The notes beneath the pieces are model-generated. The model was not told where the DNA came from and did no database searches. It worked only from the letters and a program-made list of their open reading frames with translations. This document shows, in pieces, positions 5,715-39,648 of a stretch of 47,265 nt of DNA; position 1 is the stretch's first letter; each line of letters opens with the position of its first letter. The DNA lies in the NCBI GenBank assembly GCA_028288985.1, contig JAQGHE010000051.1, positions 1 through 47,265 of the forward strand, written 5' to 3'. The position numbers and the translations under genes are program-made. Source of the DNA: Candidatus Saccharimonadota bacterium. Lineage in GTDB: Bacteria; Patescibacteriota; Saccharimonadia; Saccharimonadales; UBA10212.

Positions 5715-5825
5715 AAAAAAAGACCCCGAGGGGTCTCTTCTCGCCGGAAGTTCTCTCCGAAGAGAGGACTTCCTCGACGCAGTCATCTCTGACTTTTGCC
5801 GATTGCCACCTCACAGTGGCTAAGT
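5715..5825 (-). ncRNA. Candidate small RNA, copy 1 of a two-member family (unknown function)
   Basis: Lies between the promoter at 5829-5857 and an intrinsic terminator, AGACCCC-UC-GGGGUCU plus a U-run (+ strand 5714-5736). The 5' part, ACUUAGCCACUGUGAGGUGGCA, is identical to copy 2 at 12441-12555. An internal hairpin GGAAGUCCUCUC-UUCG-GAGAGAACUUCC is present. No ORF. Confidence 0.6.
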
Positions 5826-5828
5826 ACC

Positions 5829-5857
5829 AATATAGACCTAAGGCTATTTGCCGTCAA
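5829..5857 (-). promoter_or_regulatory. Sigma70-type promoter of sRNA copy 1 (TTGACG-17 nt-TATATT)
   Basis: Minus strand reads TTGACGgcaaatagccttaggtcTATATTggtactt. Hexamer spacing counted by hand. Confidence 0.6.
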
Positions 5858-5954
5858 CATATTTTTTCGGCAAATTTTCAGTGGAATATGCACATGTTTA
5901 TTTAACAGATAACCCCCTGTGGGTATGCTGTGGAGAAGCCTGTGGATGAGTCAG

Positions 5955-8801: not shown

Positions 8802-8888
8802 GCCCGCCCGTCAAAAGAGTTTCAAGAATTGCACGCCCGCAAGAAATAAGTTTACAAATAGCTAGTTTTATGTCAAAATAACAATAAC

Positions 8889-10994: not shown

Positions 10995-12224
10995 TTACGC
11001 TCTTTGGCGGCGATCTATAAAAAATCCTCGCCCGGCAGGTTCCCGTTTATAGCGGGCTTCCGGACCGGATCTGCCGCTCCTTCCCGGCCTATCGATGCGA
11101 TAGCTGGGCGGAGGCGTGTGGTCTGTGAGGGCCAGCAGCACCATGCCGGCTCCCATCCAATAAGCCAGCAGCATGACAAAGAAGCCTACGAACGGTATCA
11201 GATACAGAATCAGCAGGATCACGCCGCCAGCTAGAACTATTAGCAGTGGGTTGCGCAGTGCCGGCCAGATCCTAAGCCCAATGTAATAGGCCGTGAATAA
11301 GCCGCTGGTCAGACCGATCAATAACCAGCTGATCAGCAGCAGTATGCCCAGCGGCAAACCAACGATGGTTACCATCAGCAGTACCGCCAAAATGGGGATG
11401 AGGATGCTGGCCACTAAACCTGTCAGCAAAGCCCGCCACGGCCTTCTTATCCCCTGGACCGCCACCAGATGCACGAGTTGCGGCAGCAGCGTGGTCACTA
11501 TCAGTGCTGTTATAAGCAATACTATGGCAACGCCCAGGCCGAAAAGCAGCGACGATAAAGCCGGGTGCGCTTTTTCCTTGGGCTGATGCTGGCTGACCGC
11601 TCCCCCCACAGTGGCACCATTGTCGATAGCAATCTTATTCTTGCTGGTATATTCTATGCCTCCGCCAACTTTGGCGCCCCGTGCCAAGGTTATTCTGTCG
11701 GCCGTACCTGTTATATCGCGGGCTACTTGTCCGCTTATGTTCACATTGCTGGCCGCAATCGCCAGATCGCGACCAACGGTGCCATTTATATTTAGACTGC
11801 TGGCGGCAAAACTGGCATCCATACCGATCCGGCTCTTGGAATCAATATTTACAGTTTGGGCCGCAACCGAAGCGCTGCGGGCGATATCACCGTTTAAATT
11901 AACAGTCTGGGCCCCCAGTCTGACACTGCCTTCCACTGTGCCGCTGATAGTTATAGTCTGGGCGCCGCAAATTACATCGCCTTTGACGGTGCCGCTGATA
12001 TCGACTGTCTGGGCGCCGCAAAACAGATCGCCGTTTATGGTTCCGGCTATGCTGACATTCCTGCCGCCCACCCAAAGGCCGTAATCAAGGGTTTCGTTAC
12101 CCGCTACAGTTACAGAATTGCCGGACATGAACTCTGTTGAAGCCATAGTTCGGGAGCCGATGCCAAGAAATATCAGAAACAGTATCACACCCGATATTGC
12201 CGCCAGCCAGGCTCTTCCCTTCAT
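10995..12224 (-). CDS. Membrane protein with bactofilin-like (polymer-forming, beta-helical) repeats and a polytopic C-terminal domain
   Basis: 409 aa. N-terminal TM, then about 8 repeats of G(D/S)hxxGAQTVxIxG, then 4-5 TM helices and an Arg-rich tail. Confidence 0.55.
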   Translation of the reverse strand: MKGRAWLAAISGVILFLIFLGIGSRTMASTEFMSGNSVTVAGNETLDYGLWVGGRNVSIAGTINGDLFCGAQTVDISGTVKGDVICGAQTITISGTVEGSVRLGAQTVNLNGDIARSASVAAQTVNIDSKSRIGMDASFAASSLNINGTVGRDLAIAASNVNISGQVARDITGTADRITLARGAKVGGGIEYTSKNKIAIDNGATVGGAVSQHQPKEKAHPALSSLLFGLGVAIVLLITALIVTTLLPQLVHLVAVQGIRRPWRALLTGLVASILIPILAVLLMVTIVGLPLGILLLISWLLIGLTSGLFTAYYIGLRIWPALRNPLLIVLAGGVILLILYLIPFVGFFVMLLAYWMGAGMVLLALTDHTPPPSYRIDRPGRSGRSGPEARYKREPAGRGFFIDRRQRA

Positions 12225-12408
12225 AAGCGCCTCTCCTATTGCGCCGAAGTATATTCGCTTTTTGAAAAATTAGCGGTGATAAATTATGCTATTCGGCTGA
12301 GACCCCACTCCAGAAATTAACCACAGGTTCATGCACAGGTTGCCCACAGCCGGTTATCTGTTAAAAACTAACTGTGCATATTTTTATAAAATGCCGGTAT
12401 TTTTATTG

Positions 12409-12437
12409 TTGACCGCACTTACTGTTAAGTCTATATT
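12409..12437 (+). promoter_or_regulatory. Sigma70-type promoter of sRNA copy 2 (TTGACC-17 nt-TATATT)
   Basis: TTGACCgcacttactgttaagtcTATATTggtactt. The -10 and the downstream 30 nt are identical to copy 1. Confidence 0.6.
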
Positions 12438-12440
12438 GGT

Positions 12441-12555
12441 ACTTAGCCACTGTGAGGTGGCAGCAGGGACAACCGGAAACGATTGTCCCTGGGACAGCCC
12501 TCTCCTCGGAGATGACTGTCAACAAAATAAGACCCTTCGGGGTCTTATTTTGTTT
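12441..12555 (+). ncRNA. Candidate small RNA, copy 2 of a two-member family (unknown function)
   Basis: The 5' part ACUUAGCCACUGUGAGGUGGCA is shared with copy 1. Hairpin CAGGGACAA-CCGGAAACGA-UUGUCCCUG is present, as is the shared GAGAUGACUG. Terminator AAGACCC-UUCG-GGGUCUU plus a U-rich tail (12529-12555). The track ORFs here (12331-12609 +, 12403-12696 -) look spurious. Confidence 0.6.
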
Positions 12556-12605
12556 CCCGGCACAGTTATTTACAGTGATTTCAACAGACTTTTTGAAGGA
12601 GAATT

Positions 12606-12872
12606 TTAGGATTTGCGGGCGTTTTTGACAGCTTCGTACTTTACGATCGCGTAGCTGCCCGTAAATGCCCCGGCAGACAGTGGGACTATGTACCATTTGT
12701 TGTGGACATAACTGACTATCCCAACCGCACCCAGTACATAGGTCAGCACACTCATGTAAGCAGCATGAAGTGCTTTAGATTTTATGACCGCGATAGTATA
12801 AAGCGCGAAGACCGCATCCAGCGCCAGCGAGGCGAAAAATAAGCCGATGGCCTGCAGCCAATTGAATTCCAT
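12606..12872 (-). CDS. Hypothetical small membrane protein (3 predicted TM)
   Basis: 88-aa ORF, strongly hydrophobic throughout. Confidence 0.5.
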   Translation of the reverse strand: MEFNWLQAIGLFFASLALDAVFALYTIAVIKSKALHAAYMSVLTYVLGAVGIVSYVHNKWYIVPLSAGAFTGSYAIVKYEAVKNARKS

Positions 12873-12910
12873 AGTTTAAATTTAACAAATGTACTGCTAT
12901 CGAGACACTC

Positions 12911-12939
12911 TTGTAAATTAGAGTAATTTATGGTAAAAT
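12911..12939 (+). promoter_or_regulatory. Promoter TTGTAA-17 nt-TAAAAT (TGn extended -10) upstream of 13005-13457
   Basis: Hexamers and spacing counted by hand. Confidence 0.5.
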
Positions 12940-13004
12940 ATTAATATCTTCGTGATTTTTCTCGGAGAAGACAAGCAGGCACACATCAACTCCAGGAGAG
13001 TAGA

Positions 13005-13958: not shown

Positions 13959-14026
13959 ATGTTAATTTTTTCGCAAAAACAGATTTAAGGCTATCTAAAT
14001 TTTCACCTTTAGCAAAATCAAGGATC

Positions 14027-14286
14027 TACCACCTTGTGCCGACAAGGTGGTGCCAAACTCTGGGCTGTTCTCCTCACTTGATGCATCTGATAGTAAAAAA
14101 CGAGCTTGCCTAAAGATCGCCTCAGTAAACTTGCCGTCGGGCAACTTTATTTCGTTTAACGGGCTTTAGGAAGCCAAGCCCGCTCATTTTTATTACATCA
14201 TCTGCTTCAGGTGAGGCTTCTTTATGCCCAAGGGCCACGCATGTGCTTATTCAGGTGAGGCTATAGATGCCCGGACCCAACACACG
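14027..14286 (+). repeat. Intergenic repeat module R, copy 1 (ends with module S, 14252-14279)
   Basis: Hairpin CCACCTTGT-gccg-ACAAGGTGG (14029-14050), then GTGCCAAACTCTGGGCTGTTC...GATGCATCTGATAGTAAAAAACGAGCTTGCC...CAGGTGAGGCTTCTTTATGCCCAAGGGCC...CAGGTGAGGCTATAGATGCCCGGACCCA. Near-identical to 16371-16599 and to the reverse complement of 25240-25445. Confidence 0.9.
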
Positions 14287-15886: not shown

Positions 15887-15937
15887 TCCTCGGGTCGATG
15901 GAATACCTATTTAATAACATATTTATCCAGCTTTTGC

Positions 15938-16001
15938 TACCTTTTGCCAAAAAGGTAATGCCAAACTCTCAGGCGTCTGCTCACTTGATAGATTAAAAAA
16001 C
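15938..16001 (+). repeat. 5' fragment of module R in a divergent promoter region (palindrome TACCTTTTGCCAAAAAGGTA)
   Basis: Palindrome 15938-15957 followed by ATGCCAAACTCTCAGGCG...CTCACTTGATAG, matching the start of module R. It overlaps the -35 region of the minus-strand promoter TAGCAA-17-TATTAA (15911-15939). Confidence 0.75.
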
Positions 16002-16342: not shown

Positions 16343-16370
16343 TCTAATTCTTTCCAAGAACCAATTTTTT

Positions 16371-16599
16371 ACCACCTTTTGCCGAAAAGGTAGTGCCAAG
16401 CTCTGGGCTGTTCGCCTCAGCTTGATGCATCTGATAGTAAAAAACGAGCTTGCCTAAAGATCGCCTCAATAAACTTGCCGTCGGGCAACTTTATTTCGTT
16501 AAACGTGCTTTAGGAAGCCAAGCCCGCTCATTTTATTACATCATCTGCTTCAGGTGAGGCTCCTTTACGCCCAAGGGCCGCAAGTCTCCAAGCCTGAAC
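16371..16599 (+). repeat. Intergenic repeat module R, copy 2
   Basis: Aligns by hand with copy 1 over about 210 nt with roughly a dozen differences. The hairpin carries compensatory changes (CCTTTTgccgAAAAGG versus CCTTGTgccgACAAGG). It ends in CTCCAAGCCTGAAC, abutting the stop of 16599-16940. Confidence 0.9.
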
Positions 16600-16971: not shown

Positions 16972-17069
16972 CGCCTTGCTCAGGCGAGCCCATAGATGCC
17001 CGGACCAAAACTGCAGTCTTCCAGGTGAGACTCCAAGCCTGAACTTGAAATCTGTTTTCCTATTGATGC
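16972..17069 (+). repeat. Composite junction repeat (degenerate module S plus module J)
   Basis: CGCCTTGCTCAGGCGAGCCCATAGATGCCCGGACCA (compare the reverse complement of 26015-26052), then CTCCAAGCCTGAAC...TGTTTTCCTATTGATGC (compare 17781-17821 and the reverse complement of 25150-25204). Confidence 0.85.
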
Positions 17070-17677: not shown

Positions 17678-17742
17678 AAAATAACTCCTTAGGAGCAATA
17701 TTATACCACCTTTTACACTAGTTTTCTACCCTCCAGACCGTG

Positions 17743-17821
17743 CCCTTCGGTTAGACATGCGTTTGGCCGCGACCTTGCGGCTTCACTCATCCTTCTGTTT
17801 TCCTATTGATGCCCGGACCCA
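17743..17821 (+). repeat. Left 79-nt inverted repeat (IR-L) bracketing the AT-rich core
   Basis: CCCTTCGGTTAGACATGCGTTTGGCCGCGACCTTGCGGCTTCACTCATCCTTCTGTTTTCCTATTGATGCCCGGACCCA. It differs at 6 of 79 positions from the reverse complement of 24296-24375 (hand alignment). Confidence 0.9.
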
Positions 17822-17891
17822 CACTTGTGATGAATGTCATTGTTATTTATCACGCTTACGTATATTATCCGAGCAACAAGAGGGGGTGGGT

Positions 17892-20823: not shown

Positions 20824-23559
20824 ATGCCCTTATCATGGAACGAAATTAGAATTCAAGCTGCTGGATTCGCGGAAAGATGGAAAGATGAGTCTAGCGAAAG
20901 CGCAGAGAAACAAACTTTTTGGAATGAGTTTTTTTCTATATTTGGTATGGATAGGCGCAGTGTGGCACTTTACGAAAAAGCGGTGGATCGTTTCAGTGGA
21001 GCTACGGGCTTTATAGACTTGTTTGTTCCTGGTCAGCTAATTGTTGAGCACAAGAGCGGCAATCAGCCCCTAGACCCAGCCTTTGACCAGGCAGCTGACT
21101 ATGCATTACTTCTTTCGCCCAGTGATCGGCCCCGATATATAATTACATCCAATTTTCACACCTTTCGTCTTTATGACTTAGTTACGGTTTCAAAACAAAA
21201 CGAGTGGACATTTTCCTTAAAGGACTTAGCCAAAAATATTGGTAAATTCGGGTTTATAGCCGGTTACAATAAGCAAGAAGTTTTTGAGGAAGATCCCGTC
21301 AACCGACAGGCTGCCGAGCGTTTAGCTGAGCTGCACGACCAACTCACGGATACCGGCTATAAGGGCCACGATTTGGAAGTACTGCTCGTTAGGCTTCTTT
21401 TCTGTTTATTCGCTGAAGATAGTCATGTTTTTGAAAAAGGAATTTTTCATGATTTTATATACGATCGAACCGATATAGATGGCTCTAATCTTGGAGCCCA
21501 GCTAAATTCACTTTTTGAAGTATTAAACACACCAAAGGAAAAACGCCAATCAAATTTGGATGAAACTTTAGCAGCCTTCCCATATGTTAACGGCAAGTTG
21601 TTTACTGAAAGAATCGCGCCCGCCAGCTTTGACCATAAGATGAGAGATAGAATATTAAATGCAGCGCATGACATAAATTGGAGCGAGATTAGTCCGGCTA
21701 TTTTTGGTGCTATGTTTCAGGGCGTAATAGATCCTAAAATCAGAAGACACCTCGGAGCTCACTATACAAGCGAGCAAAACATCATAAAAGTTATTAAGCC
21801 TCTTTTTTTGGATGCATTGTGGGAGGAATTTAATAAGGCTAAGGACTATAGGCCCCAATTGAACGAATTCCACGACAAACTAGGGAGTCTAACATTCATG
21901 GACCCAGCCTGTGGTTGCGGCAATTTTTTAGTCGTTACTTATCGAGAATTAAGGAAACTTGAACTAGAAGTTTTAAAAACAAAGTACTCTATTCCGGGCT
22001 TAGATATGAAAGAGATGGAGCTAGATTTATCTACTGTCACAAGGTGCAATGTGGATCAGTTCTATGGCCTTGAAATAGAAGAATTCCCGGCGCAAATAGC
22101 ACAGGTCGCTTTATGGCTAACCGATATGCAAATGAATAATGAGGCGGCCGACTATTTTGGCAAACCACTGCTCAGATTGCCTTTAACTCAATCTCCTACA
22201 ATCGTGCAGGGGGACGCGTTAACTACAGACTGGGAAGAACTGATTGAACCGAGTAAGCTATCTTATCTTCTCGGGAATCCTCCATATGCTGGCTATAAAC
22301 TCCAAGATGCTGATCAGAAAATTGCACTTTCTAAATATACCGATTCTATTGAGGGAGGCGGAATTTTAGATTTTGTATGTGGGTGGTTTTTGAAAGCAGC
22401 CAAGTATACAGAAGGTACTACAATTATGAGTGCTTTTGTTGCTACGAACTCAATCGTACAGGGCGAACACGTTACGCCACTGTGGCGTACTTTATTTAAT
22501 AAAGGTATCCACATTAATTTCGCCCACCAAACATTTAAGTGGAGCAATGAAGGAAGAGGAAGCGCGGGAGTTCATTGTGTAATCGTTGGCTTTAGCTATG
22601 TAGAAAAAGAACAAGTGAGTCTTTTTGAATACATATCTGCCTCGGGAGATCCTCATGAACTTATAGTAAATCACATAAATGGATACCTCCTCCCGGGGGA
22701 AGATATATTTATAGAAAAACGCAGTAAGCCATTTCGGACTTGGCCTGCCATTAACTACGGCAATGAACCTAGAGAAGGCAATTTTCTGATTTTTGACTCA
22801 GAAGATAGTAAGAATTCTTTCATAGACATGGAACCTCTCTCTGAAAAATTTATAAGACGATTCATGAGTGCCGAGGACTTCATAAATAGAACTGGTCGCT
22901 GGTGCTTATGGTTGGTAGACGCTTCACCAGGTCAGCTCCGAGAGATGCCGCATGTACTTAATAAACTTAGGGAAGTTAGAGATTTTCGTAAAGAATCAAA
23001 ACAAAAAGCTGCCCATTCGGCGGCTAGCACACCATCTCTATTCGTTTCTATCAGACAGCCAGATAAAGACTACCTCCTGATCCCTATAGTTTCTTCCGAG
23101 AATCGTCGTTATATACCAGTTGGTTGGGTTGACAAAGATGTGATTGCAAGCAATGCGGTCTTTACCTCAATGGAAGCTTCACTTTTCCACTTCGGCGTCT
23201 TAATAAGCGAAATGCACATGACATGGATGCGTCATATATGCGGTAGATTGGAAAGTCGTTATAGATATTCAAATACAATTGTTTACAATACCTTTCCTTG
23301 GCCTAACTGCAACGAAGAAGAGCAAGAAAATATAGCGAACCTTGGGAAAAAAGTGCTTGACGCTCGGAATGAGTATCCTGGAGATTCTTTGGCAGAAATG
23401 TATGATCCACTAACCATGCAACCAACCCTTCAAAAAGCTCATCAAGCATTAGACGCCGCTGTTGATGAACTATACAGAAAAGAGAAATTTACGACCGACT
23501 CAGAACGAATGCAGTTGCTTTTAGCCCTTTACAAGGGATTGGCTAACATAGAGGGGTAA
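20824..23559 (+). CDS. MmeI-like type IIL (IIG/IIS) bifunctional restriction endonuclease / N6-adenine DNA methyltransferase
   Basis: 911 aa. The N-terminal FIDLFVPGQLIVEHKS is a D-x(n)-ExK nuclease motif. FMDPACGCGNFLV is SAM motif I and LLGNPPYAG is catalytic motif IV (NPPY). A long C-terminal target-recognition region follows. Size and order match MmeI-family enzymes. Confidence 0.8.
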   Translation: MPLSWNEIRIQAAGFAERWKDESSESAEKQTFWNEFFSIFGMDRRSVALYEKAVDRFSGATGFIDLFVPGQLIVEHKSGNQPLDPAFDQAADYALLLSPSDRPRYIITSNFHTFRLYDLVTVSKQNEWTFSLKDLAKNIGKFGFIAGYNKQEVFEEDPVNRQAAERLAELHDQLTDTGYKGHDLEVLLVRLLFCLFAEDSHVFEKGIFHDFIYDRTDIDGSNLGAQLNSLFEVLNTPKEKRQSNLDETLAAFPYVNGKLFTERIAPASFDHKMRDRILNAAHDINWSEISPAIFGAMFQGVIDPKIRRHLGAHYTSEQNIIKVIKPLFLDALWEEFNKAKDYRPQLNEFHDKLGSLTFMDPACGCGNFLVVTYRELRKLELEVLKTKYSIPGLDMKEMELDLSTVTRCNVDQFYGLEIEEFPAQIAQVALWLTDMQMNNEAADYFGKPLLRLPLTQSPTIVQGDALTTDWEELIEPSKLSYLLGNPPYAGYKLQDADQKIALSKYTDSIEGGGILDFVCGWFLKAAKYTEGTTIMSAFVATNSIVQGEHVTPLWRTLFNKGIHINFAHQTFKWSNEGRGSAGVHCVIVGFSYVEKEQVSLFEYISASGDPHELIVNHINGYLLPGEDIFIEKRSKPFRTWPAINYGNEPREGNFLIFDSEDSKNSFIDMEPLSEKFIRRFMSAEDFINRTGRWCLWLVDASPGQLREMPHVLNKLREVRDFRKESKQKAAHSAASTPSLFVSIRQPDKDYLLIPIVSSENRRYIPVGWVDKDVIASNAVFTSMEASLFHFGVLISEMHMTWMRHICGRLESRYRYSNTIVYNTFPWPNCNEEEQENIANLGKKVLDARNEYPGDSLAEMYDPLTMQPTLQKAHQALDAAVDELYRKEKFTTDSERMQLLLALYKGLANIEG

Positions 23560-24105: not shown

Positions 24106-24295
24106 TTTCTCATTTTTATTTTAGCATTAGTAGCTGGTTTCATTATAACTCCTCTATAAGCTTAAGCAATACAATTATCCTAATAAGAAATAACCATAAT
24201 CGAGTTATTCAAGCCTTGGTTGATCTCAAGCATAGTTAAATTCTACATAGTGTGGTTGATGTTTCAGGCTGGGGTTGCCTGAACAAGGCGTGTTT

Positions 24296-24375
24296 TGGGT
24301 CCGGGCATCAATAGGAAAACAGAAGGATGAGTGAAGCTGGCAAGATGACGGCCAAACGCATGTCTAACCAAAGGG
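24296..24375 (-). repeat. Right 79-nt inverted repeat (IR-R) bracketing the AT-rich core
   Basis: The reverse complement reads CCCTTTGGTTAGACATGCGTTTGGCCGTCATCTTGCCAGCTTCACTCATCCTTCTGTTTTCCTATTGATGCCCGGACCCA, matching 17743-17821. Confidence 0.9.
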
Positions 24376-24442
24376 CGATCGGATTGGTCCACTTGCCAGC
24401 AAGCGAATCCTATCTGCTTTTTCCGTCTGCCCGGCGGTGGGT

Positions 24443-24509
24443 GCTACCTTGCCGCCCAAGGTAGCAAAAATTATCTGAGCTTGGTAATACCTTTTCGGCA
24501 AAAGGTATT
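24443..24509. repeat. Two palindromic hairpins of the TACCTT...AAGGTA family
   Basis: GCTACCTTG-ccgc-CCAAGGTAGC (24443-24465) and AATACCTTTTCGGCAAAAGGTATT (24486-24509). Confidence 0.8.
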
Positions 24510-24556
24510 AAAATTTTTGATTCGGAGGTTAACAGTGTGGTCGAGCCCTGGGGCTA

Positions 24557-25204: not shown

Positions 25205-25239
25205 TTAAATAGTAGTTGGTAGTTAGCAGATGGTAGCTG

Positions 25240-25445
25240 GTGTGTTTTGGGCATAAAGGAGCCTCACCTGAGCAGATGATGTAACAAAAGTAGCGGCTTT
25301 GAGTTCCTGAAGCTGTCTGACGAATAAAGTTGCCTGCGGCAAGTTTATGAGGAGTTCTTCAGGCAAGCTACTTTTTTATCATCAGATGCATCAAGCTGAA
25401 GCGAACAGCCCAGAGTTTGGCACTACCTTGTCGGCACAAGGTGGT
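25240..25445 (-). repeat. Intergenic repeat module R, copy 3 (reverse orientation)
   Basis: The reverse complement reads ACCACCTTGTGCCGACAAGGTAGTGCCAAACTCTGGGCTGTTCGCTTCAGCTTGATGCATCTGATGATAAAAAAGTAGCTTGCC...CTCAGGTGAGGCTCCTTTATGCCCAAAACACA. It is more diverged than copies 1 and 2. Confidence 0.85.
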
Positions 25446-25451
25446 AAAAAT

Positions 25452-25892
25452 TTATTGCTGGTACAGCAACAATTCCTGCGTCCGGGTCAGCGGCATCAAT
25501 ATATGGTGGCCTATTCGCTGGTACAGCGCCGTTCCCTGATCAAGATCCTCGGCAGAAGCCAGCCTGGCAAAGGGAACCCCATAGCGACGCCTATACAATA
25601 AATTACTCTTTTTTACCCCTACGCTCAGTAAAGTACCCATAACTGTGTGCTCTTCGTAATCGCCCTGACTATCCGTGAGGTGCTTTAGATCATCGGTACC
25701 GGGTATGATCTCGCCTTCAGCTGACAGACGGGGCTGCCAATAATAGCCAGCGAAGACGGCTGTTTGATATTCTTTCCCGCTGTACAAGTAGTTGACTAAC
25801 GAACACCAGTTCTCGTCAACATTTTCCGGAATCGGCAGCATCTCCTGCGGAGCAAGCTGCGGCACGATATCCCATTTAGGTAATTCAGACAT
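25452..25892 (-). CDS. Hypothetical protein
   Basis: 146-aa ORF (MSELPKWDIVPQ...). The ATG lies 8 nt downstream of a TATACT box, so the mRNA is probably leaderless. Confidence 0.5.
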   Translation of the reverse strand: MSELPKWDIVPQLAPQEMLPIPENVDENWCSLVNYLYSGKEYQTAVFAGYYWQPRLSAEGEIIPGTDDLKHLTDSQGDYEEHTVMGTLLSVGVKKSNLLYRRRYGVPFARLASAEDLDQGTALYQRIGHHILMPLTRTQELLLYQQ

Positions 25893-25930: not shown

Positions 25931-25981
25931 TGCGGCATGGTAGGTGGTAGTTAGCAGATGGTAGATGGTAGGTGGTAGCTG

Positions 25982-26052
25982 GTGTGTTTTGGGCATAAAG
26001 AAGCCTCACCGTTATGGGTCCGGGCATCTATAGCCTCACCTGAGCAAGCGCG
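25982..26052 (-). repeat. Outermost right junction repeat (module S plus the R tail, reverse orientation)
   Basis: The reverse complement reads CGCGCTTGCTCAGGTGAGGCTATAGATGCCCGGACCCATAACGGTGAGGCTTCTTTATGCCCAAAACACAC. These are the same two sub-modules as 14207-14286 but in swapped order. Confidence 0.85.
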
Positions 26053-31640: not shown

Positions 31641-31694
31641 GTTCTTATATTATCGCACGGATTTTTGAGCCGGGAAAAATCATTAAGATTATGC

Positions 31695-31723
31695 TTGTGC
31701 TGCGGATTTATACGTTGTATAAT
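31695..31723 (+). promoter_or_regulatory. Promoter TTGTGC-17 nt-TATAAT facing the ORF-free GC-rich segment
   Basis: Hexamers and spacing counted by hand. The -10 lies within the imperfect hairpin GCGGATTTATAC-gtt-GTATAATCCGC (31702-31727). Confidence 0.45.
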
Positions 31724-31774
31724 CCGCTTTATCTTTGTTGAGGCTTTACATAAAGCCTCCGAAGGAGTTTTTTG

Positions 31775-32445
31775 ACAAGTAGATACTGATCCGAGGTGAG
31801 ATATAAGTATCCGGCTTTTACGAGACTGGTATTTTTATCTCATCTCGGGGTGTTCCCATAACGCCTAGCCACTCCGTGGCCCGAGCAGTGAGACCAGCAA
31901 GGAGGCTCTTTGTGAGTCACTCTCGTGCAGGTCCCGTCTCATCCGCGTCGACGATCCCTGCCCCAGAGGCAACGATTTCGACCATCGGCACCGGCCCGAT
32001 CACGTAGACACGTCGATCGCGCTCGGCTCGCAGAACGCGTAAGCCTTCCGGCCTACGCTAAGACGACGAAGTAAAGACGGGCCTCGCTAACCGTCTGCTA
32101 GTGCAACACCTCTTCGGTGTACCACCTTTGGCAAACGCCTCAAGCTACGGTTCATGGTCCGGCGCCTGCATAAGGATGGCCTGACCAGAACGATGGTCAT
32201 GACACGAAAAACACAACCCAGCCGGACGCTTCAGAATGGTCCGACTAGGCTGCTGCCGTAAATCGGCAAAACATCAGCCGCGCTGAGCGCGGTCGTCCCG
32301 CAAGGGACAATCAGGAGACGAGGTGGGGCCCGCGTAGCTAGGGGAAGATATTTCCCGGTTCGCGGGCACCACCCGTCCTCCGCCTATTCGCCGGTAACAG
32401 TATCTACTTGTTCTTCTCATACCGCCGCGCAAGGCGGTTTTTTTA
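31775..32445 (+). ncRNA. Candidate large structured RNA (about 670 nt; class unknown)
   Basis: No ORF of 60 aa or more in any frame across 31669-32480, and stop codons are frequent in all frames despite high GC. There is a perfect 14-bp long-range pairing, ACAAGTAGATACTG (31775-31788) with CAGTATCTACTTGT (32398-32411). Nested helices and GNRA/UUCG-type loops are present. The terminator lies at 32421-32445. Confidence 0.5.
32421..32445 (+). terminator. Intrinsic terminator ACCGCC-gcgcaa-GGCGGT plus TTTTTTT
   Basis: GC stem followed by a 7-T run on the + strand. On the minus strand the run is A, so it is oriented for a + strand transcript. Confidence 0.65.
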
Positions 32446-32480
32446 TTATCTAGAATGACGAGCGGATAAACCGCAGGCTG

Positions 32481-33068
32481 TTACTTAGGCGGCTCCTGGG
32501 CAGTATCTCCCTGCTCTAGGCGTTTAGCTTCAGCAACAACCGCGCTGAGTATTCGTATGAAGTTTGAGGTATCACTGGTATTAGAGCTGCCGCCTAAGCT
32601 ACGGCGTTCTTTAGGGGACATGGCCAGGTAGGCCTCTACCCCCTCTACGATCAAATAATCTTGCTCAAACATTCTTTCTTCAGCTTCCTCTCGGTTTAGC
32701 CAGGGTTGGTGGTCCCTTCCCGGCAGGTCGGTAGGGATTTTCTGCTTCAGCTTCTCTATATCGACGTCATATAAGGCTTCCGGCCGGGCGGACATTATAG
32801 GCGGCAGGCCTTTATGCAATAGGTGTGAGTTAAGGGCGTAAAGCCGTGTTCCCCATGTAACTTTTGCCCTCTCTCGGTTGCTTAGTTGCTCAACCACTTC
32901 TTTGAACTGCTGATAATCGAACGACCCGGCCGGGCTCTCTTGCTCGGCGCCCGCTTCCGCCGGAGCTTCCCCGGCTGAAGATCCTACAGAGAGCCGCCCC
33001 GCCGCCCTGGCTGCGTCCTCTGGAGGAATGGTCTTGCCTTCGCCTGCTTTGTCTTTTTCCATAGCCAA
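32481..33068 (-). CDS. Hypothetical protein
   Basis: 195-aa ORF with a low-complexity Ala/Gly/Glu N-terminus. No family recognised. Confidence 0.45.
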   Translation of the reverse strand: MAMEKDKAGEGKTIPPEDAARAAGRLSVGSSAGEAPAEAGAEQESPAGSFDYQQFKEVVEQLSNRERAKVTWGTRLYALNSHLLHKGLPPIMSARPEALYDVDIEKLKQKIPTDLPGRDHQPWLNREEAEERMFEQDYLIVEGVEAYLAMSPKERRSLGGSSNTSDTSNFIRILSAVVAEAKRLEQGDTAQEPPK

Positions 33069-33105: not shown

Positions 33106-33630
33106 TTACGACAATCCCACTTGCTGCCTAGGATCATAAACAGTCAAGATATCCGAAGTTAGAGTTTTTGCCATCTTGGTGTCGCCGTATTTAGCGGTAA
33201 CGTCGTTAAGATCAAGGATTTGCCCCATATTGGCAATTATTAAAGCCTCACTAGCAAACCGTTCTATGTCGTCATTATGTTTTTTCATCTTGGCCCGCTC
33301 TGCCCACGTCATCTTGTCGGGTATTTCCAGGATGGATGAGCCCTCGTATTGGTTGGTGAAAATTGATAGGCCACCCTCGCTGATTAATCTGCTATCGATG
33401 GTGTGGAAGCGGTTCCAGGCCACCACGTTTCCTACCCGGTGATCGGAAGCTCGTATAAATTGCGTAAAGTCGTGGAAGTTCAAAAACTCTCTTGGCTGGC
33501 GGCCAGTTTCGGCGCTGGCAGCTAAAATACGCTTACCCGCCTCTCGGGCAATGCTGTGCGGCAACCTGTGCAGATCCGCCATGCCCTCATGCCTATTCAT
33601 CACAATAGTTTTATAAAAATAATGCTTCAA
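33106..33630 (-). CDS. Hypothetical protein
   Basis: 174-aa ORF. An alternative start is the internal Met at MNRHEG. No family recognised. Confidence 0.45.
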   Translation of the reverse strand: MKHYFYKTIVMNRHEGMADLHRLPHSIAREAGKRILAASAETGRQPREFLNFHDFTQFIRASDHRVGNVVAWNRFHTIDSRLISEGGLSIFTNQYEGSSILEIPDKMTWAERAKMKKHNDDIERFASEALIIANMGQILDLNDVTAKYGDTKMAKTLTSDILTVYDPRQQVGLS

Positions 33631-33664: not shown

Positions 33665-35035
33665 TTAGCTTTGGCTAAAGAAGTCGGCGCTTTCCATCTC
33701 TGGAGGCAGGAAGCCCTCGTTTGGCTTAAAATCCGCCTGCCACTTGTAGTCTTTGCCGTAGCCGAGGTCTTTCATTAGTTTAGTCGGGGCGTTGCGCAGA
33801 TGCAGCGGTACCGGCAGATCTGGAAAGTCCCGGGCAGCTGACAAGGCTTGGTTCATGGCGCTGGTAACCTCACGGGATTTTGGAGCTTTGGCCATTACGG
33901 CGGCGCAGTGGAATAAGTTGTACTGGCACTCCGGCATGCCGATGCGCTCTACTGCCAGGAAGGTGGAGACCGCCAGATTGAGTGCCGCCGGGGCGGCCAG
34001 GCCGATATCTTCGCTGGCGAATACCACCATCCGCCGGGCGATGAACTTGGGATCTTCGCCGGCTTGCAGCATCCGGGCCATATAATAAAGCGCGGCGCTT
34101 GGCTGGCTGCCGCGCATGCTTTTTATGAAGGCACTGATGATGTTGTAGTGATTCTCGCCGGCTTTGTCATAGCCGGGGATTCTGGTTTGAGCAGCCGATT
34201 CGATTATTTCTTTAGTAATCGTGCCTTTAGTGAGGCTGGCTGCTAGCTCCAGCGTGTTCAACACAATGCGGGCATCACCGCCGCTCATTTCAGCTAGTAG
34301 ATCCAGGGAGGCGGCCGGCAATCTTTTATCCGAAATCTTTTCGGCTTTGGCGGCACGTTTCAAAATCTCAACCAAATCAGCTTTGCTAAGCGGCTCCAGA
34401 ACGATGACCCGGCTGCGCGAAAGCAAAGGGTTGATGACCTCGAAGCTGGGGTTCTCGGTGGTGGCGCCGATCAAAGTGATTAAGCCGGATTCCACGTGAG
34501 GTAAAAAGGCATCCTGCTGGGCTTTATTGAAGCGGTGAATTTCGTCGACAAAAAGTACCGTGTGCTTGGGCCGGACAGTCTGCTCTCCGGCGGAGCCGGA
34601 GACTCCACTGCCCTTTTTGGTGCGCGGCGGCGTTGCCGGCGCCGATACTCCTTCGTCGTATTTGCCATACGCCTCTGTCCGTTTCTCGCTGGCGCCTTGC
34701 GCCCCATCCAAGCCAAGCACACGTTGCTTGCTGTCCTGTGATGTTGCTGCAATGTGCTGATTCTCGCGGGCGCGCTCTACGACTTTGTTCACGTCGGCTT
34801 TGCCTGATGTTACGGCCGACAGCTCGATAAAATCAGCTTCCATGTCACTCGCGATAATGCGGGCCAAGGTAGTTTTGCCGCTGCCTGGGGGACCCCAGAA
34901 GATCAGCGAAAAAGGCTGGCCGGTACTAACCAAACGCGGAATCAGCTGCCCTTCGCCTAAAATATGTGCCTGGCCTACCACCTCAGACAGTGTCTTTGGG
35001 CGCATCCTCTCCGCTAGCGGCTGTTTTAGCTCCAT
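33665..35035 (-). CDS. rarA: Replication-associated recombination protein A (RarA/MgsA AAA+ ATPase) with a low-complexity insertion
   Basis: 456 aa with LAERMRPKTLSEVVGQ, GPPGSGKTTLA (Walker A) and LFVDEIHRFNKAQQDAFL (Walker B/sensor). The C-terminal MgsA-type domain includes NAPTKLMKDLGYGKDYKW. Confidence 0.85.
   Translation of the reverse strand: MELKQPLAERMRPKTLSEVVGQAHILGEGQLIPRLVSTGQPFSLIFWGPPGSGKTTLARIIASDMEADFIELSAVTSGKADVNKVVERARENQHIAATSQDSKQRVLGLDGAQGASEKRTEAYGKYDEGVSAPATPPRTKKGSGVSGSAGEQTVRPKHTVLFVDEIHRFNKAQQDAFLPHVESGLITLIGATTENPSFEVINPLLSRSRVIVLEPLSKADLVEILKRAAKAEKISDKRLPAASLDLLAEMSGGDARIVLNTLELAASLTKGTITKEIIESAAQTRIPGYDKAGENHYNIISAFIKSMRGSQPSAALYYMARMLQAGEDPKFIARRMVVFASEDIGLAAPAALNLAVSTFLAVERIGMPECQYNLFHCAAVMAKAPKSREVTSAMNQALSAARDFPDLPVPLHLRNAPTKLMKDLGYGKDYKWQADFKPNEGFLPPEMESADFFSQS

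Positions 35036-39432: not shown

Positions 39433-39648
<216 letters not shown>

Follow-up and report, generated by a model that had tools for sequence, protein, structure and literature searches.

What occupies the 840 bp that separate two minus-strand open reading frames (ORFs) in DNA from Candidatus Saccharimonadota (contig JAQGHE010000051.1, positions 1 to 47,265, a stretch referred to below as the window)? An earlier note, made from the letters of the DNA, had suggested a large structured RNA of unknown class. The segment is a real and striking sequence feature, and the best available reading takes it as a stand-alone, lineage-specific gene on the + strand for a large structured non-coding RNA (ncRNA). 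This reading rests on one sequence, is unproven and is given an even chance here. The earlier suggestion holds as regards the missing ORFs, the self-complementarity and the lack of a matching Rfam family, whereas thermodynamics leaves the strand undecided and no homologue was found.

Coding capacity, composition and folding of the gap

The gene-free gap extends from the start of an 81-amino-acid ORF (31640, - strand) to the stop of a 195-amino-acid ORF (32481, - strand). It had been described as ORF-free, which is correct, and as 810 bp long, which is not: it measures 840 bp (31641-32480). Coding capacity is absent. The longest ORF inside the gap has 52 amino acids, none reaches 60, and every one of the six frames carries between 7 and 16 stop codons. 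The content of guanine plus cytosine (GC) is 0.54 over the gap and 0.605 in its core, compared with 0.41-0.50 in the 13 other intergenic gaps, and this is the only intergenic gap longer than 250 nt with GC above the window mean. The description of the core as GC-rich and free of ORFs (60.5% GC, 52 amino acids at most) is thus sound. Screening of intergenic regions by GC and length is an established approach for finding ncRNA (for example PMC11109978), and the GC excess of the gap is the signature that such screens use, so it is counted in favour of a structured ncRNA.

Similarity to proteins was sought with all six-frame stop-free segments of at least 27 amino acids, concatenated and compared with 5.8 billion proteins, and there were no matches at E<=10. 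A decayed or known protein gene is rejected on this result. An intact gene in relatives, which would make the locus a pseudogene, was likewise not found, and no frame resembles any protein. Reading TGA, TAG or TAA as sense gives no convincing ORF, and the sole long recoded frame needs three TAA read-throughs and crosses the terminator described below. In codon usage the internal ORFs score from -0.35 to +0.07 bits per codon, compared with 0.32 +/- 0.19 for real genes and -0.67 +/- 0.34 for off-frame readings; the two orphan ORFs that flank the gap score gene-like, at 0.23-0.24. No internal direct, modular or tandem repeats were found in the segment, and a repeat array is ruled out on that ground.

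The predicted fold of the segment is exceptional, well defined and present throughout. Dinucleotide shuffling gives z scores of -11.1 on the + strand and -7.6 on the - strand, and a second, independent set of shuffles gives -10.4 and -7.5. When the closing helix (P1) and the 5' hairpin (H1) are removed, the remaining 549-nt core still reaches z -5.8 on both strands, compared with +0.25 to -2.3 for four coding controls of that length. Five consecutive sub-blocks are each significant alone, with z from -2.4 to -5.0 on the + strand. When the minimum free energy (MFE) is regressed on GC over about 600 windows of the contig, the segment is the most extreme on both strands. The ensemble agrees, with a positional entropy of 0.56 compared with 1.04 +/- 0.2 in shuffles and 42% of positions having a pair probability above 0.9 compared with 17%, and the coding controls match their own shuffles in these measures.

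A non-functional remnant, be it a decayed gene, leftover foreign DNA or an assembly chimera, would carry such a fold without a biological role. That the segment was found in one contig only, in all collections searched, would suit a remnant, as would a + strand frame (31869-32450) broken by just three TAA codons. Three stops in 194 codons lie, however, within expectation at 60% GC (about six by our estimate), no frame has protein similarity, and the flanking genes are intact with native codon usage. The element is in register with both its terminator and P1, and z scores of -6 to -11 together with low structural entropy lie far outside the coding and intergenic background of the contig. A remnant or chimera is very unlikely on this evidence.

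The next GC-corrected folding outliers of the contig are 6901-7700 on the + strand (z -3.0 to -3.3), overlapping a 440-nt gap beside a DEAD-box helicase gene, and 12150-12950 on the - strand (z -2.2 to -2.8), overlapping a 780-nt gap (12225-13004). Neither has an Rfam match.

Layout, ends and strand of the segment

The features of the segment are listed below with coordinates and strand; P denotes pair probability.

31695-31723, + strand: promoter-like site, read directly, with TTGTGC (-35, 3 of 6 consensus positions), a 17-nt spacer and TATAAT (-10, 6 of 6; 31718-31723)
31733-31764, + strand: 5' leader hairpin, CUUUG/CGAAG plus GAGGCUUU-ACAU-AAAGCCUC, -15 kcal/mol, z -2.0
31733-31773, + strand: whole leader, with a tail of GAG and then U6 (31768-31773)
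31774-31788, + strand: 5' arm of P1, the closing helix, pairing with 32398-32412 over 15 bp, P 0.98
31791-31848, + strand: H1, a long AU-rich hairpin with a 13-bp basal stem and then 5-, 4- and 3-bp stems, P 0.89-0.99
31849-31926, + strand: Block A, three hairpins (31849-31865, 31868-31880 and 31882-31925), z -2.4 (+) and -0.05 (-)
31899-32007, + strand: sequence like a Shine-Dalgarno (SD) site, AAGGAGG (31899-31905), and a 31-codon GTG ORF (31912-32007), read directly
31927-32087, + strand: Block B, a multibranch domain closed by CCCGUCU/AGACGGG, z -2.9 (+) and -3.7 (-)
32088-32203, + strand: Block C, two extended hairpins (32092-32137 and 32140-32202), z -2.6
32204-32313, + strand: Block D, an A-rich linker and four hairpins, z -3.2 (+) and -5.2 (-)
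32314-32397, + strand: Block E, a 29-bp GC-rich composite hairpin (32314-32381) and a 3-bp stem, P 0.87-1.0
32398-32412, + strand: 3' arm of P1, pairing with 31774-31788
32421-32445, + strand: intrinsic terminator found by the terminator scan, ACCGCC-GCGCAA-GGCGGU (32421-32438) and then U7, 8 nt past P1

All helices that the earlier note had picked out by eye can be read in the sequence and were recovered by MFE folding with high pair probability. Its 13-bp 5' hairpin is the base of H1 (31791-31803 with 31836-31848, one G-U pair, P 0.99). The GUCCC-GCAA-GGGAC hairpin (32295-32308) has P 1.0, and CCGCGC-UGA-GCGCGG is found within the longer GCCGCGC-UGA-GCGCGGU (32277-32293); these two stand in Block D beside hairpins at 32214-32252 and 32254-32268. 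The nested helix of Block E (32314-32381) consists of six stacked segments with single-nucleotide bulges (P 0.87-1.0), and the block folds with z -5.0 on the + strand and -3.4 on the - strand. Block B holds three inner hairpins, one of which, GCC-UUCC-GGC (32043-32052), is the UUCC loop that had been described; the UUCG loop described with it is not a strict tetraloop and has 5 nt, ACACC-UCUUC-GGUGU (32106-32120).

The perfect 14-mer said to close the whole element is present and is extended by a terminal G-U pair to the 15 bp of P1. Its two arms are the only copies of the 14-mer in the window, even with two mismatches allowed, and the chance expectation for such pairs within 750 nt is about 0.001 by our own estimate. 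A perfect pair of inverted termini (14 of 14 positions complementary) that lies exactly at the borders of the GC-rich block is also what would be expected of a foreign or selfish insertion with terminal inverted repeats (TIRs), either like a miniature inverted-repeat transposable element (MITE) or the non-coding remnant of a mobile element. Such an insertion might have been acquired together with the 195-amino-acid orphan, and the hairpins inside it would then be by-products or have a role in the DNA itself. The GC content of the segment, 60% compared with 50% for the genome, accords with this origin. However, no target-site duplication is seen (TTTTTG on the left, TTCTTC on the right), and the flanks ...GTTTTTTG and TTCTTCTC... 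have no in-register direct repeat in common, not even one of 2 nt. Neither the termini nor the interior recur in the 47 kb, and no frame shows a transposase remnant. The segment is larger and GC-richer than typical MITEs and far more elaborately folded, TIRs alone leave the interior z of -5.8 unexplained, and the extra G-U pair of P1 is meaningful in RNA only. An insertion of this kind is therefore regarded as unlikely.

The leader hairpin between the promoter-like site and P1 could stabilise the 5' end or serve as a weak terminator of the attenuator type. Its 3' arm, ACAUAAAGCCUCC, has complementarity to the SD hairpin (31901-31913) as well. That hairpin is the third of Block A (31882-31925), and it sequesters both AAGGAGG and the GUG start codon. 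These features bear on whether the transcript might be an mRNA or a dual-function RNA for a 31-amino-acid peptide (31912-32007), with the surrounding structure serving as untranslated regions (UTRs) that control translation. AAGGAGG stands 6 nt ahead of the GTG, and for a 7-mer of this kind together with a start codon at the right spacing the chance probability in 650 nt is about 1-2% (our estimate). The enclosure of SD and start in a 7-bp hairpin (P 0.87), together with the complementarity of the CCUCC-containing leader arm to the SD/start region, resembles a translational switch. The peptide itself speaks against this: its codon usage is -0.09 bits per codon, about two standard deviations below real genes, it has no homologue in 5.8 billion proteins, it is not hydrophobic, and its composition is like that of a GC-rich random frame. 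Only 15% of the structured segment would be taken up by the ORF. A peptide message is highly improbable, and the 31-codon ORF is probably not a gene.

The reading as an RNA gene depends further on where transcription would start and stop. The -10 hexamer of the promoter that had been called good is indeed perfect, whereas its -35 hexamer agrees with the consensus at only 3 of 6 positions, and the promoter scan did not report the site because this hexamer falls below the 4-of-6 rule of that scan. Promoter function, with a transcription start near 31730, is suggested by the sequence. The terminator that had been noted on the + strand was found by the scan (32421-32438 with its T-run). It is specific to the + strand because on the - strand the hairpin runs into UAUGAGAAG. 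No + strand protein gene lies upstream of it. The segment is assigned to the + strand because the + only terminator stands 8 nt past P1, the TATAAT faces in the + direction and the whole-element z is larger on the + strand. A cis-regulatory leader or riboswitch on the + strand does not fit, as a transcript would meet the terminator before any gene, and the gene that follows lies on the other strand.

Thermodynamics does not decide the functional strand. In absolute energy the - strand folds at least equally well, with an MFE of -300 kcal/mol compared with -288 kcal/mol on the + strand. All neighbouring genes lie on the - strand, and for this reason a - strand structure is kept as a rival: it would follow the upstream genes as a long structured 3' UTR, or precede the genes for the 81-amino-acid protein and a GH10 xylanase as a 5' leader, and be concerned with processing, stability or regulation. 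The better z scores of Blocks B and D on the - strand, its 23 G-U pairs and the co-directional genes on both sides fit such a UTR. No convincing - strand terminator lies between the stop of the 195-amino-acid ORF and the start of the 81-amino-acid ORF, with weak candidates at 32292-32265 only. However, the strong terminator (32421-32445) is + only and would otherwise have no transcript to end, the perfect TATAAT points in the + direction, and the z of the whole element is stronger on the + strand (-11.1 compared with -7.6). A leader of 640 nt would be far above known riboswitch and leader sizes, and in relatives the gap upstream of GH10 is short, at 55-290 nt. Taken together, a - strand UTR is quite unlikely.

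Known families, homologues and genomic neighbourhood

The segment belongs to no known RNA family. Covariance models of Rfam 15 (4227 families) gave no match at the gathering score over the whole 47-kb window, so that the earlier failure to match RNA signatures such as that of RNase P by eye is repeated by the database. A permissive scan of the region (E<=10) returned only single-hairpin noise from microRNA and small-RNA models, at no more than 24 bits compared with gathering scores of 37-119. RNase P, transfer-messenger RNA (tmRNA), 6S, signal recognition particle RNA, group I and II introns, self-cleaving ribozymes and riboswitches are ruled out in that their Rfam gathering scores are not reached. 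No transfer RNA (tRNA) or tmRNA was found in the window.

Homologues, for which the earlier note had proposed searches with blastn or nhmmer, were not recovered. None was found by blastn among phages and plasmids, in viral contigs by degenerate-pattern scans with translated RNA frames as bait, or in Joint Genome Institute (JGI) metagenomes by two scans of six degenerate 24-nt probes. Nor was one found by nhmmer and blastn in 80 rarA loci of GTDB genomes, or by nhmmer, blastn and a covariance model in 96 fetched loci (about 45 of them from Saccharibacteria). When 468 kb of mainly Saccharibacteria loci were scanned with a covariance model built from this one sequence (its 3' 199 nt), the sole match, of 18 bits, was spurious (L091, 2662-2820). 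The element was not found in the contexts of the closest GH10 homologues or of the five distant relatives of the 174-amino-acid gene. Literature searches found no large RNA described in Saccharibacteria or the Candidate Phyla Radiation (CPR).

The window is chromosomal, with an ATP synthase operon, G6PD, an ABC transporter, a DEAD-box helicase, a GH10 xylanase and an MmeI-type restriction-modification enzyme, and RarA (33665-35035) is 70-76% identical to proteins from metagenome-assembled genomes of Candidatus Saccharibacteria. The neighbours of the segment all lie on the - strand: rarA, the 174- and 195-amino-acid ORFs, and on the other side the 81-amino-acid ORF and GH10. No phage-like or defence-like genes adjoin it. 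This housekeeping setting, which is neither that of a phage nor that of a plasmid, speaks for the reading as an RNA gene. The best neighbours in the collections have about 70% nucleotide identity in housekeeping genes. The ATP synthase c subunit (AtpE; 39433-39648, + strand) is 100% identical in five contigs (L084-L088) that are only about 70% identical to the window in DNA; these contigs keep the G6PD, ABC and ABC-2 genes in synteny with the atp operon but lack rarA, the orphan genes and the structured segment. As the relatives with an exact AtpE are only about 70% identical and the 195-amino-acid ORF has no cluster mate, the lineage has no close relative in the collections. The synteny of rarA is not conserved across the 80 rarA loci.

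Two orphan genes separate the segment from rarA. The 195-amino-acid ORF (32481-33068, - strand) abuts the element. Among 5.8 billion proteins it has no relative, although it uses codons as a native gene does; its single-sequence AlphaFold2 model is uninformative (pLDDT, the model's own confidence measure, is 45). The 174-amino-acid ORF (33106-33630, - strand) is one of a rare family: just five relatives, at 26-32% identity, occur in a set of 1.84 billion representatives. The true start of this ORF is probably M17, which gives 158 amino acids. AlphaFold2 models it as all-helical (pLDDT 67), and it matches neither a PDB fold nor a Pfam family. For these orphans nothing was found in Pfam, PHROGs, PADLOC, NCBIfam, a PDB sequence-profile search or a Foldseek comparison of the AlphaFold2 models with the PDB. 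A gene of the 174-amino-acid family also directly follows rarA in two other loci (L092, 1681-2319, and L089, 192-794). Neither these loci nor the three that keep GH10 (L081-L083) have the 195-amino-acid orphan or the structured segment, and the pair of orphan and element looks lineage-specific for this reason. Both this pattern of absence and the lack of any relative of the 195-amino-acid ORF are in keeping with the TIR-bounded insertion considered above.

Other features of the window were observed in passing. The MmeI-type (type IIL) restriction-modification enzyme at 20824-23559 (+ strand) is complete, with all five MmeI domains. An intergenic repeat family occurs in both orientations, with up to 97% identity over 114 nt, a hairpin ACCACCTTGTGCCGACAAGGTGGT and a motif GGTCCGGGCATC[AT]ATAG, at 14007-14280, 15925-15969, 16350-16579, 16975-17009, 17742-17830, 24289-24513, 25210-25466 and 25952-26050; these could be terminator or promoter modules that recur, or else a small mobile repeat. 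Another element, about 160 nt long, has two inverted copies (5804-5945 and 12321-12462; complementarity of 88% over 56 nt and 80% over 45 nt), of which one follows the DEAD-box helicase gene and the other precedes a bactofilin-domain gene. Further long intergenic gaps (692-1054 nt) begin at 8802, 12225, 19310 and 23560, which is unusual for a reduced genome.

Proposed working and comparison with known systems

Several points weigh against a functional RNA gene on the + strand. No homologue was found anywhere searched, and with it covariation and any sign of conservation are missing. The long, near-perfect helices could also mean a young or selfish element and not an old functional RNA. A strong SD and a start codon lie inside the segment. 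The -35 hexamer is weak, at 3 of 6 positions, and the hairpin with U6 between promoter and P1 could terminate the transcript early. Folding energy and G-U counts (17 on the + strand, 23 on the - strand) have no preference for the + strand; Blocks B and D score better on the - strand, and Blocks A and E favour the + strand. On the other side, Saccharibacteria genomes are tiny, so a noncoding gap of 840 bp with such structure is unlikely to have been retained for nothing.

If the segment is an RNA gene, its transcription, strand, processing and any function may be pictured as follows, on sequence grounds. A sigma-70-type promoter with a perfect TATAAT would start transcription about 45 nt upstream of the core. 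The primary transcript would measure about 715 nt (roughly 31730-32445), of which about 640 nt (31774-32412) form the core. A 5' hairpin would cap this transcript. P1, as a 15-bp helix, would join the 5' and 3' ends of the core and enclose at least 13 helical elements in about five blocks, and the intrinsic terminator 8 nt past P1 would stop the transcript ahead of the convergent gene. Its function would lie in the fold and not in a message: the RNA would be a scaffold, a ribonucleoprotein component or a ribozyme. P1 may shield the ends from exonucleases or, by analogy with rRNA precursors, may be a processing stem of the RNase III type. The buried SD and GUG would fit avoidance of ribosome binding or, less likely, a regulated 31-amino-acid ORF.

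Large structured bacterial RNAs are rare, and OLE, GOLLD, ROOL, HEARO and raiA have each led to unexpected biology; RNA-only cages and IscB guide RNAs are examples. If the segment is transcribed and conserved, it would be a new RNA class in a phylum for which literature searches found no such RNA described, and a genuine RNA would found this new class within a known kind, the large structured RNAs. It is possible, with somewhat less than an even chance, that the segment is the first of such a class: an ornate stand-alone RNA of about 640 nt in the small episymbiont genome of a CPR bacterium, closed by a long helix between its two ends, for which processing, circularisation or self-assembly as in ROOL and GOLLD would be possible. 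The adjacent orphan gene may have arrived with such an RNA as one module. Should the segment instead be a TIR-bounded insertion, Saccharibacteria would have in it an unusual kind of mobile DNA.

Known systems resemble the segment in different respects. In retrons, the msr-msd ncRNA is likewise a structured ncRNA closed by terminal inverted repeats (a1/a2), but here there is no nearby reverse transcriptase gene, the segment is 3-4 times larger, and no Rfam or PADLOC match was obtained. MITEs and other TIR elements share the 14-bp perfect TIRs, the noncoding interior and the absence from the loci of relatives; unlike them, the segment has no target-site duplication, is single-copy in 47 kb and GC-rich, and has an interior z of -5.8 without its termini. 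During rRNA maturation, the sequences flanking 16S and 23S form RNase III processing stems, and P1 is like these in that a long perfect end duplex encloses a large structured RNA. Unlike in rRNA precursors, no rRNA, tRNA or other Rfam family lies inside, and cleavage at P1 is a conjecture from this analogy.

The large ornate RNAs are a further comparison. OLE (RF01071), GOLLD (RF01998), ROOL (RF03087), HEARO (RF02033) and raiA are defined by hundreds of covarying homologues, whereas the segment is a single sequence. It matches none of their models even at E<=10, and since these covariance-model tests are negative it is not a member of any of them. It differs as well in its Saccharibacteria host and in helices that are unusually long and nearly perfect. 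Families of large ornate RNAs measure about 350-800 nt, and the segment falls in this size class. Like them, it stands alone in a gap that has no ORF and is richer in GC than the sequence around it, has many multibranch helices and joined ends, and lies beside no gene that it obviously regulates.

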